This document shows, one piece after another, positions 22,296 to 24,175 of a stretch of DNA of 64,000 nt. Position 1 is the stretch's first letter; every line of letters begins with the position of its first letter. A program made the position numbers and the translations under genes. The notes under the pieces were generated by a model, which worked only from the letters and a program-made list of their open reading frames with translations, searched no databases and had not been told where the DNA came from. Source of the stretch: Octopus sinensis (lineage: Eukaryota); NCBI RefSeq assembly GCF_006345805.1, contig NC_042999.1, positions 117,428,001 to 117,492,000 of the forward strand, given 5' to 3'.

Positions 22296-23245
22296 ATATC
22301 TATTGTTTGAATTTCTTTGAAATAGGAAATATATGTTCACTGGGTTTGTAAAGAAGAGCAAAGCTACAGGAAACCAAAAGACGAATGATCACAATAAGCA
22401 GTCAGTTACCCTACCCTAGTCGTTACCACTCCCAATGTAGGATTCCTCACCATCCAGGTGACAGGCACAGCCGTAAGATGCATTGCGAATCTATAGCAAT
22501 TGGAAGGGCGTGACCCAACTGAAATCAACATTAACAACTGTATGACGTGAGGGCTAAGGAGAAATTAAAGTGTCACCTCTGGAGTTTGCAAATGACCACT
22601 AAACTGATACGTAACTAGACAGAATAAATTTAAAATCTATAAATGTCTTTGAATAACCAGTCACTCATCTGGGAAGGCCTTGAAATCAATGTTACCAACT
22701 GGGGACTATGTGTGACCGAGTGATAATAAAAAGACTGAAAGGAGGTCTGCAATCAAATAACTTTACTCAGCACTTTGCAACTGAATTAGTGGAGGCAAAG
22801 ATGCTTCTCATTTACTTGACAATTTATGCACCACATTCCAGAAATCACAATGTAAGTGTATGTCAAAGCAAACTGTTACACTGTTGTACCATTGAACTAG
22901 AAATAATGCCCAACTTTTATGCTCGGGTAACCCTACAGCTTCCAAGAGCACAACTGTATTCGTTTTTGCTTAGATAAAATGACAAAATTGTAGGTGTTAA
23001 GTCCCCATGGAGGGGTCTTTCTAACTTTGTAATAAGATTAGATTTTATAAATATTACTTCATTTGTGTCTAATATCTATGGTTAAAATTTCATCAACAGC
23101 AAAAATATATGAATTGTCATGGGGGTTATGACCCTTATGCATAGAATATAATTTCCAAATTTCATAAAGATCTATTCAGTACTTTTGACCTAGTTTTGGA
23201 ACAGAAAAAGAAATATATATATTAGAAATATATTAGAACTAGCAG

Positions 23246-23291
23246 CCTGGAGACATGCATGTTTCTGGGTCTTGCCCGTCGTCAGTCCAGG
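23246..23291 (-). ncRNA. Type I hammerhead ribozyme (inverted copy)
   Basis: CCTGGA-CTGACGA-cgggcaagaccca-GAAA-CATGCATG-TC-TCCAGG on the minus strand. Confidence 0.85.
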
Positions 23292-23468
23292 GTAGCGTGT
23301 CCACCCCAGCGGTGATACTTACCAAGCCCTTGCAAATATATCTATTTACAGTGAAATTTATTCACTGGTCACCGTAATTAGAAATATTGAATTTCTAAAT
23401 CTCTACGGGACTGTCACGTTATGTTGACTTTATACAACCACTCTATCGCTCCACCACCGCTCATGTCT

Positions 23469-23512
23469 CTGGACTGACGACGGGCAAGACCTAGAAACAT
23501 GCATGTCTCCAG
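23469..23512 (+). ncRNA. Type I hammerhead ribozyme
   Basis: CTGGA-CTGACGA-cgggcaagaccta-GAAA-CATGCATG-TC-TCCAG; predicted cut after 23507. Confidence 0.85.
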
Positions 23513-23822
23513 GCTGCTAGTTCTAGCTGGTGGGGATGCTTGCCTCCCCTTTGCAAATATAAGGACACAAGAAATGTGTCAAAGCCGACAGGAAGCGTCG
23601 ATGCTTCCTAGGGCTGTATAGCTTTGGTGTAATTCCCTCTACGGGACTGTCACCTTATGTTGACTTTATACAACCACTCTATCGCTCCACCACCGCTCAT
23701 GTCTCGTTCAGACATTTAGAAATTCAATATTTCTAATTACGGTGACCACTGAATAAATTTCACTGTAAATAGATATATTTGCAAGGGCTTGGTAAATATC
23801 ACCGCTGGCGGGCACACGCTAC

Positions 23823-23868
23823 CCTGGACTGAGGACGGGCAAGACCCAGAAACATGCATGTCTCCAGG
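23823..23868 (+). ncRNA. Type I hammerhead ribozyme
   Basis: CCTGGA-CTGAGGA-cgggcaagaccca-GAAA-CATGCATG-TC-TCCAGG; predicted cut after 23862. Confidence 0.85.
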
Positions 23869-24175
23869 CTGCTAGTTCTAACTGGTGGGTGCTTGCCTCC
23901 CATTTGCAAATATAAGGACACAGGAAATGTGTCAAAGCTGACAGAAGGCGTCGATGTTGCATAGGGCTATATAGCGGTGGTGTAATTCCCTCTAAGGGAC
24001 TGTCACGTTATGTTAACTTTATACAACCTCTCTCTCTCTCTCTCTCTCTCTCTCTCTCTCTCTCTCTCTATATATATATATATATATATATATATAGATA
24101 TATATATATATATATATATATATATAAATGAAAGAATGGAGTTGAACGACGAATTAACAAAATTCCTTTATTTTA

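Follow-up and report, generated by a model that had tools for sequence, protein, structure and literature searches.

A rearranged copy of an abundant 355-nt hammerhead repeat in Octopus sinensis: a likely non-LTR retrozyme in TA-rich DNA

The DNA analysed here, referred to as the window, is a stretch of 64,000 nucleotides from the Octopus sinensis genome (RefSeq assembly GCF_006345805.1, contig NC_042999.1, positions 117,428,001 to 117,492,000 of the forward strand), and all coordinates are counted from its first letter. A compact repeat locus in this window is built around a non-coding unit of 355 nt with 46.5% GC, which runs from one predicted hammerhead cut site to the next on the plus strand (23508..23862). 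Taking 23508 as unit position 1, the locus consists, in order, of a TA run, an inverted piece with unit positions 207-355 and 1-19, a direct piece with 130-198, positions 317-355, the complete unit 1-355, a second unit that stops at 168, and (CT)21(TA)29. The short (TA)n run forms the 5' flank (23213..23232). The inverted, 5'-truncated copy (23233..23400, minus strand) differs from 23713-23881 in 7 of 169 columns, and the short direct piece (23401..23469, plus strand) matches 23637-23705 with one difference in 69. Aligned to unit 1, the partial second unit (23863..24028, plus strand) is decayed, and a repeat scan places the (CT)21 followed by (TA)29 at 24028..24126. A sequence-only reading of this DNA had already described a 168-bp inverted copy with a third hammerhead and a partial next unit leading into (CT)n(TA)n. 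Both descriptions hold; the inverted copy is strictly 168 bp (23233-23400 against 23714-23881), or 172 bp if one mismatch is allowed.

Unseen in that reading was the 69-nt direct piece, which abuts the first hammerhead directly across a 118-nt deletion and thereby swaps out the native upstream helix-I flank of this motif. A small hairpin predicted at 23699..23715 (plus strand) carries both the end of the deletion and the start of the inversion, and the family variants at 23706, 23707 and 23709 fall in its loop. The deletion joint (23704 to 23824) occurs in one contig of the public sequencing run X3, at a depth of 59 like that of single contigs; the other three runs surveyed lack it, and it is therefore locus-specific. 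At the 5' boundary of the element, an 11-nt direct duplication (23217-23238) takes in six bases of the element's end and may record slippage during priming. Within the locus sequence, the two flanks have only (TA)n in common, with no clear target-site duplication and no poly(A) tail. Taken together, the locus represents a single copy of an element, rearranged and in part decayed, with TA-rich DNA on either side.

Three type I hammerheads were identified by a relaxed type I descriptor and by sequence. The first lies at 23469-23512 on the plus strand (core at 23474); the second, in its native context, at 23824-23867 on the plus strand (core at 23829); and the third, with its native upstream flank, at 23247-23290 on the minus strand (core at 23285), in a piece that stops 19 nt beyond the predicted cut. 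The core CUGANGA is intact in 3/3, and each motif has a 6-bp helix I and a 3-bp helix II above a C.A pair. Helix III with its loop reads CATGCATG in all three and comprises 2 bp plus a tetraloop, and a 10-nt perfect palindrome spans it, as had been noted for stem III. Helix II is made of three G-C pairs, apart from one G.U in the first hammerhead (23492). The two plus-strand motifs are consecutive and head-to-tail, and their cuts are predicted to follow 23507 and 23862; the spacing of 355 nt is as claimed earlier, as are the bases C, G and C at position N7 of the three copies.

Two other statements about these motifs need to be qualified. The C.A pair at 10.1-11.1 is real, but there is a precedent for a mismatched helix II base in the U.U of axolotl HHR_Amex2 (PMC7229834). 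The hammerheads had also been called minimal; they are in fact of the canonical type and not minimal as PMC4209133 uses the term, where the minimal hammerheads that metazoan Penelope-like elements (PLEs) carry show a long helix II, a short helix I and a reduced helix III. A weak helix III is described there as common in animal hammerheads. We also considered treating the C that follows the core as an extra base between positions 9 and 10.1, an arrangement known from the same source, and rejected it; a C.A over three G-C pairs is preferred because the extra-base alternative leaves a G.A and only 2 bp.

The relaxed descriptor finds 4 matches in the 64-kb window against 0.09 per shuffled window (100 shuffles), and these are the three hammerheads of the locus and an unrelated motif at 28361, so that the motifs stand far above chance. 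The Rfam search that had been suggested as a check gave no confirmation: the window yields no family at gathering score, and a hammerhead model is absent among the 16 Rfam matches with E up to 10 at 22500-24600. Folded in isolation, none of the three motifs has the hammerhead as its predicted minimum fold (z-scores 0.23 to -0.89). The unrelated motif (28356-28410, plus strand) is hammerhead-like; its helix II is longer, its helices I and III are imperfect, and it is possibly a decayed hammerhead of a Penelope-like pseudo-LTR (pLTR), or a chance match.

The unit is non-coding, as the sequence-only reading had it, the longest stop-to-stop frame wholly within the element being 62 aa. No tRNA gene was found in the element. 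An internal Pol III promoter was rejected as well: there is no A-box, and three B-box matches with one mismatch each lie on the minus strand only. The unit is strongly self-paired, with a predicted folding energy of -118 kcal/mol (z -4.53) that none of 100 shuffles reached. Its predicted fold is branched, and the long closing helix is formed by the paired hammerhead flanks and extends helix I. At 23670-23699, 23 of 30 bases are A or C; this tract is predicted to be unpaired, and the 3' end of the element falls at its start.

To place the unit in a family, contigs from four public sequencing runs were aligned to one permuted unit with the hammerhead in its middle. Part of the stretch is contained in 20 of the 24 runs listed, under four organism labels, with at most 0.39 of the sampled words in any run. 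The unit is matched by 1,375, 1,583, 1,004 and 128 contigs, the last figure being that of run X13, so that all four runs carry it, and the three large ones (1,004-1,583 contigs each) bear different organism labels. In every run, 30 of 30 bins have depth and contigs cross the hammerhead. The joint that links the permuted unit's end back to its start is present in 3, 3, 1 and 2 contigs, in addition to variants with other letters, and the family forms a cycle of about 353 nt that closes in 4/4 runs without an ORF; none of the pieces listed covers the whole unit, the cycle being assembled from overlapping stretches. Contigs that continue into unlike sequence amount to 1 in 100, or 5 in 100 in X13, a weak figure given that repeat contigs are short. 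We did not take summed contig depth (up to 574,854, versus 6-76 for single listed contigs) as copy number, nor did we count the 128 contigs of X13, which is only guessed to be RNA, as evidence of expression; none of the runs that contain part of the stretch is recorded as RNA. These observations support the unit as an abundant, many-copy, hammerhead-bearing, non-coding family of about 355 nt.

Variation within this family is informative about both its structure and its subdivisions. Position N7 is U in most family copies and C, G and C in the window, and the C.A pair is unchanged among the 40 variant rows listed out of 89. Among the 24 loose ends listed out of 332, those at 23887-23888, where each row is made up of 22-36 contigs in the three large runs, represent subfamilies with different helix I strands. 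In X13, three contigs with a loose end at 23818 carry unlike sequence on the upstream side of the hammerhead and perhaps derive from a shorter variant of the unit. Other copies show at least three further opposite-strand joints and at least two loose ends in (TA)n among the rows listed, and in one contig of run X7 an inverted element end (loose end at 23691) coincides with the 3' end seen in the window. Editing of the long helix from A to I left no sign either way, with 10 A>G places in X13 and 9-10 elsewhere.

For a test of constraint on the fold, the 9 rows equal to unit 1, which served as the structure reference, were removed from the 40 listed rows, leaving 31 variants. Seventeen of them lie at unpaired sites, 11 leave the pair intact and 3 disrupt it, where 12.0 breaks are expected (P 4e-5). 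Transitions at paired sites preserve the pair in 11 of 12 cases versus 54% expected (P 0.007); pair-keeping changes are one-sided only, and several variant rows rest on a single contig. Variation in the family spares the predicted RNA fold. The second unit of the locus presents a different picture. It differs from unit 1 in 17 of 168 columns, compared with 10 of 277 in the other duplicated pieces (P 0.007), and 7 of its 10 substitutions at paired sites break a unit 1 pair. As unit 2 mostly breaks pairs, the locus copy is decaying, and its excess divergence is better fitted by a mixed-array template or by two events than by one pass around a circle.

In most of these features the octopus unit resembles the non-LTR retrozymes of metazoans, which measure 350-390 bp in mussel, 330/350 bp in axolotl and 220-245 bp in coral (Cervera and de la Pena 2020, PMC7229834). 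As in those elements, there is one type I hammerhead per unit, the unit is of 355 nt, non-coding and self-paired, and it is present in many copies; helix III likewise has 2 bp with a tetraloop, and axolotl HHR_Amex2 shares a mismatch at the helix II base. GC content is under 50%, slightly above the "<45%" given in a figure legend of that paper. The octopus element differs in its lineage and sequence family, in its inverted and deleted pieces and in its TA target. Published retrozymes are described in the same source as having a target-site duplication longer than 4 bp when one is present, and no LTR, PBS or PPT; their transcripts self-cleave and give linear and circular monomer RNA in tissues.

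A second comparison is with the pLTRs of endonuclease-bearing (EN+) PLEs such as Neptune, Hydra and Poseidon (PMC4209133, PMC8557442, PMC11167929). Here the similarities are a hammerhead near the 3' end, a partial tandem, an inverted 5'-truncated copy, a (TA)n target and a 3' end downstream of the hammerhead, whereas the octopus locus has no ORF between its repeats and carries canonical-type rather than minimal hammerheads. Neither between nor beside the repeats is there an ORF for reverse transcriptase or a GIY-YIG endonuclease at the locus. The sequence-only reading had set an independent retrozyme against an orphan pLTR. This alternative is less sharp than it was posed, as animal retrozymes are traced back to pLTRs in a preprint of 2026 (Li, Clavereau and Pollet 2026, bioRxiv 10.64898/2026.07.22.740005). 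The preprint proposes the same origin and mobilisation and reports monomers, dimers and multimers of similar size, but its case is made by co-occurrence and by homology to Xenopus pLTRs, with no mollusc in the sampling described in its accessible part; the octopus case is made by the anatomy of an insertion. It reserves the term active for retrozymes that TRF calls as a tandem of two or more successive units whose hammerheads are complete. With settings other than those of Li et al. 2026, TRF calls only microsatellites and the 11-mer at our locus, and not a 355-nt tandem.

Whether the locus itself could yield the unit as RNA was approached by fold prediction. Within 23770-23920, the active-type fold of the second hammerhead lies 3.2 kcal/mol above the predicted minimum. 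The monomer fold of the first lies 10.5 kcal/mol above it locally and 16.5-18.5 on the whole locus, where the second alone costs 10.6-11.6, both monomers 19.7-21.7 and a double hammerhead 10.7-11.5 kcal/mol. On the whole locus each active-type fold thus costs more than 10 kcal/mol, tertiary contacts being outside the energy model. By these energies, cutting at both sites costs least through the double hammerhead, and no active fold is favoured. Clean release of 355 nt from the locus copy is doubtful because the first hammerhead has lost its native flank, because the predicted folds are costly, and because 1 of 9 Xenopus dimers was cleaved in a published test (Li et al. 2026). Release from this copy would likely need the double-hammerhead fold, and the locus copy is probably a poor source of monomers; better-preserved family members would likely release the 355-nt RNA. 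The earlier proposal of a cephalopod retrozyme family therefore stands as regards a many-copy hammerhead unit with insertion marks that fit Penelope, while its claim of 355-nt release from the locus copy is weakened.

The insertion marks deserve closer attention. An inverted and deleted 5' part, a partial tandem and a TA context fit the footprint described for Penelope-like elements, for which inverted 5'-truncated copies and a bias towards microsatellites have been reported; (TA)n is preferred by 4/4 of the Octopus families tabulated (PMC8557442). In a lizard element, reverse transcription begins in an A/C-rich loop downstream of the hammerhead, on uncut RNA (PMC11167929). By analogy, we infer that the start of the A/C-rich tract at the 3' end of the octopus element marks the start of reverse transcription. 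The CT run was probably seeded by the element's own end and the TA run is the probable target, because of the sequence at 23674-23682 and the X7 loose end at 23691.

A decayed and frameshifted Penelope-like ORF is present elsewhere in the window (60200-62400, plus strand), with reverse transcriptase motifs, a C-x4-C-x2-C linker of Neptune type and a GIY-YIG-like end. Its 133-aa piece has 17 matches among 192 candidates, the best being in Octopus bimaculoides (78%) and O. sinensis (73%), and its full-length relatives carry reverse transcriptase and GIY-YIG domains. Pfam missed both PLE pieces in the window, and the Atlas gives a GIY-YIG lead on 11% of members. This element has no DNA similarity to the 355-nt unit. 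Near 62590-62630, its 3' region contains a decayed minimal hammerhead-like motif unrelated to the 355-nt family. Neither of two 10-nt probes from the unit occurs in the consensus file of PMC8557442 in its accessible part, and Hydra-1_Obim, compared by eye from the same source, was rejected as a partner because its hammerhead and its end are different. Among six Hydra consensus sequences, one, coral Hydra-2_Amil, has the 9 bases of 23674-23682 at its end, a match noticed post hoc. If this shared terminus is not due to chance, Hydra-type Penelope proteins could be the mobiliser, which we regard as a lead only.

These considerations can be combined into a working model. Tandem copies would be transcribed, and their hammerheads would cut once per unit, aided by pairing of neighbouring copies through the 10-nt palindromic helix III. 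The monomer of 355 nt would be circularised by a host ligase, and a Penelope-like endonuclease would nick (TA)n, after which reverse transcription would begin at an internal point of the RNA, downstream of a hammerhead by about 170 nt, and not at a cut end. Three hammerhead sites are read through in the copy, which would require as template either a multimer left uncut or a circle traversed about three times (about 1,035 nt in the case of a single event). A jump of the template at the 5' side, with inversion, would produce the deleted and inverted pieces, and neutral decay would follow. Our main reading, to which we give a probability of roughly 0.8, is that the locus is a rearranged, decayed copy of a many-copy 355-nt repeat, likely an octopus non-LTR retrozyme, that was probably copied by a Penelope-type enzyme into a TA microsatellite. 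A more specific suggestion is that such insertions record their mobiliser through a 3' end fixed at an internal position, about 170 nt beyond the hammerhead, on (TA)n, three hammerheads read uncut, and inverted 5' pieces; this we hold tentatively, with the odds somewhat against it.

The same marks could have been left by a truncated autonomous PLE, of which the locus would be the 3' remnant, orphan pseudo-LTRs belonging to a family that is abundant only since PLEs are mostly 5'-truncated. The inverted 5' piece, the TA target and an end past the hammerhead are all pLTR traits (PMC8557442, PMC11167929), and most PLE insertions are reported to retain the terminal repeat alone (Li et al. 2026). 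Against an orphan pLTR speak a hammerhead-to-hammerhead unit of 355 nt that has no ORF, a family graph that closes on itself in 4/4 runs, also with letters other than those of the window, and hammerheads whose helix II is short and whose helices I and III are full, in contrast to the minimal, long-helix-II motifs of metazoan PLEs (PMC4209133) and to Hydra-1_Obim. We consider this explanation unlikely. Less likely still is a hammerhead satellite that spread as DNA, by unequal crossing-over or DNA circles, or with the help of a LINE, and was rearranged by later repair. LINE remnants are frequent in the window and the uneven divergence of unit 2 permits two separate events, but the copy is dispersed and lies outside an array, it has neither a poly(A) tail nor a clear target-site duplication, the other copies listed again show inverted joints and TA-flanked ends, and family variation spares the predicted RNA fold. 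That the three-hammerhead layout is an artefact of repeat assembly seems highly improbable: the duplicated pieces differ from one another, and the deletion joint is also found in a separately assembled X3 contig, though the window itself may derive from X3. In favour of an artefact, PLE-type insertions are difficult to assemble (PMC8557442), and no run contains more than 0.39 of the sampled words.

The retrozyme reading extends animal retrozymes to octopuses, where their occurrence is to be expected because mussels have them; the class and the proposed Penelope link are already in print. We found no description of a cephalopod retrozyme in the literature searched, most subscription papers lying outside that search. 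The main text of PMC7229834, as far as it was accessible, does not mention octopus or cephalopod, and the paper on the giant squid genome gives a total of 235 hammerhead hits from Rfam, with no analysis of them in its accessible part. The value added here is anatomical, namely the marks of Penelope insertion on a retrozyme copy, compared with the published co-occurrence and pLTR homology. An abundant family with helix I subfamilies would allow the mapping of reverse-transcription starts, a comparison of circular and multimeric templates, and a search for the partner element. If the reading is true, the question of the mobiliser, and that of circles versus uncut multimers, could be tested from ends and unit variants within one genome.

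Beyond these runs, a scan for the core pattern gave 0 matches in viral contigs and 20 in metagenome contigs, of which 19 are without helix I and none is like the unit, and a 22-nt unit probe had 0 matches in prokaryote genomes. One metagenome contig (L015, 36% GC, ORFs of at most 114 aa, dissimilar to the unit) contains a plausible type I hammerhead at 4995-5040 on its plus strand, with a 6-bp helix I and the identical helix III palindrome but unrelated to the unit. In the window itself, LINE-type remnants with reverse transcriptase lie at 24887-27249 (minus strand), 42400-46613 (plus strand) and 57467-58144 (plus strand), and an endonuclease domain is found in LINE-type sequence at 43.5-44.8 kb. 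About 1 kb upstream of the repeat locus, two AT-rich inverted arms of 111 nt (21649-21759 and 22187-22297), 93% complementary and 427 nt apart, could be a small DNA-transposon derivative.
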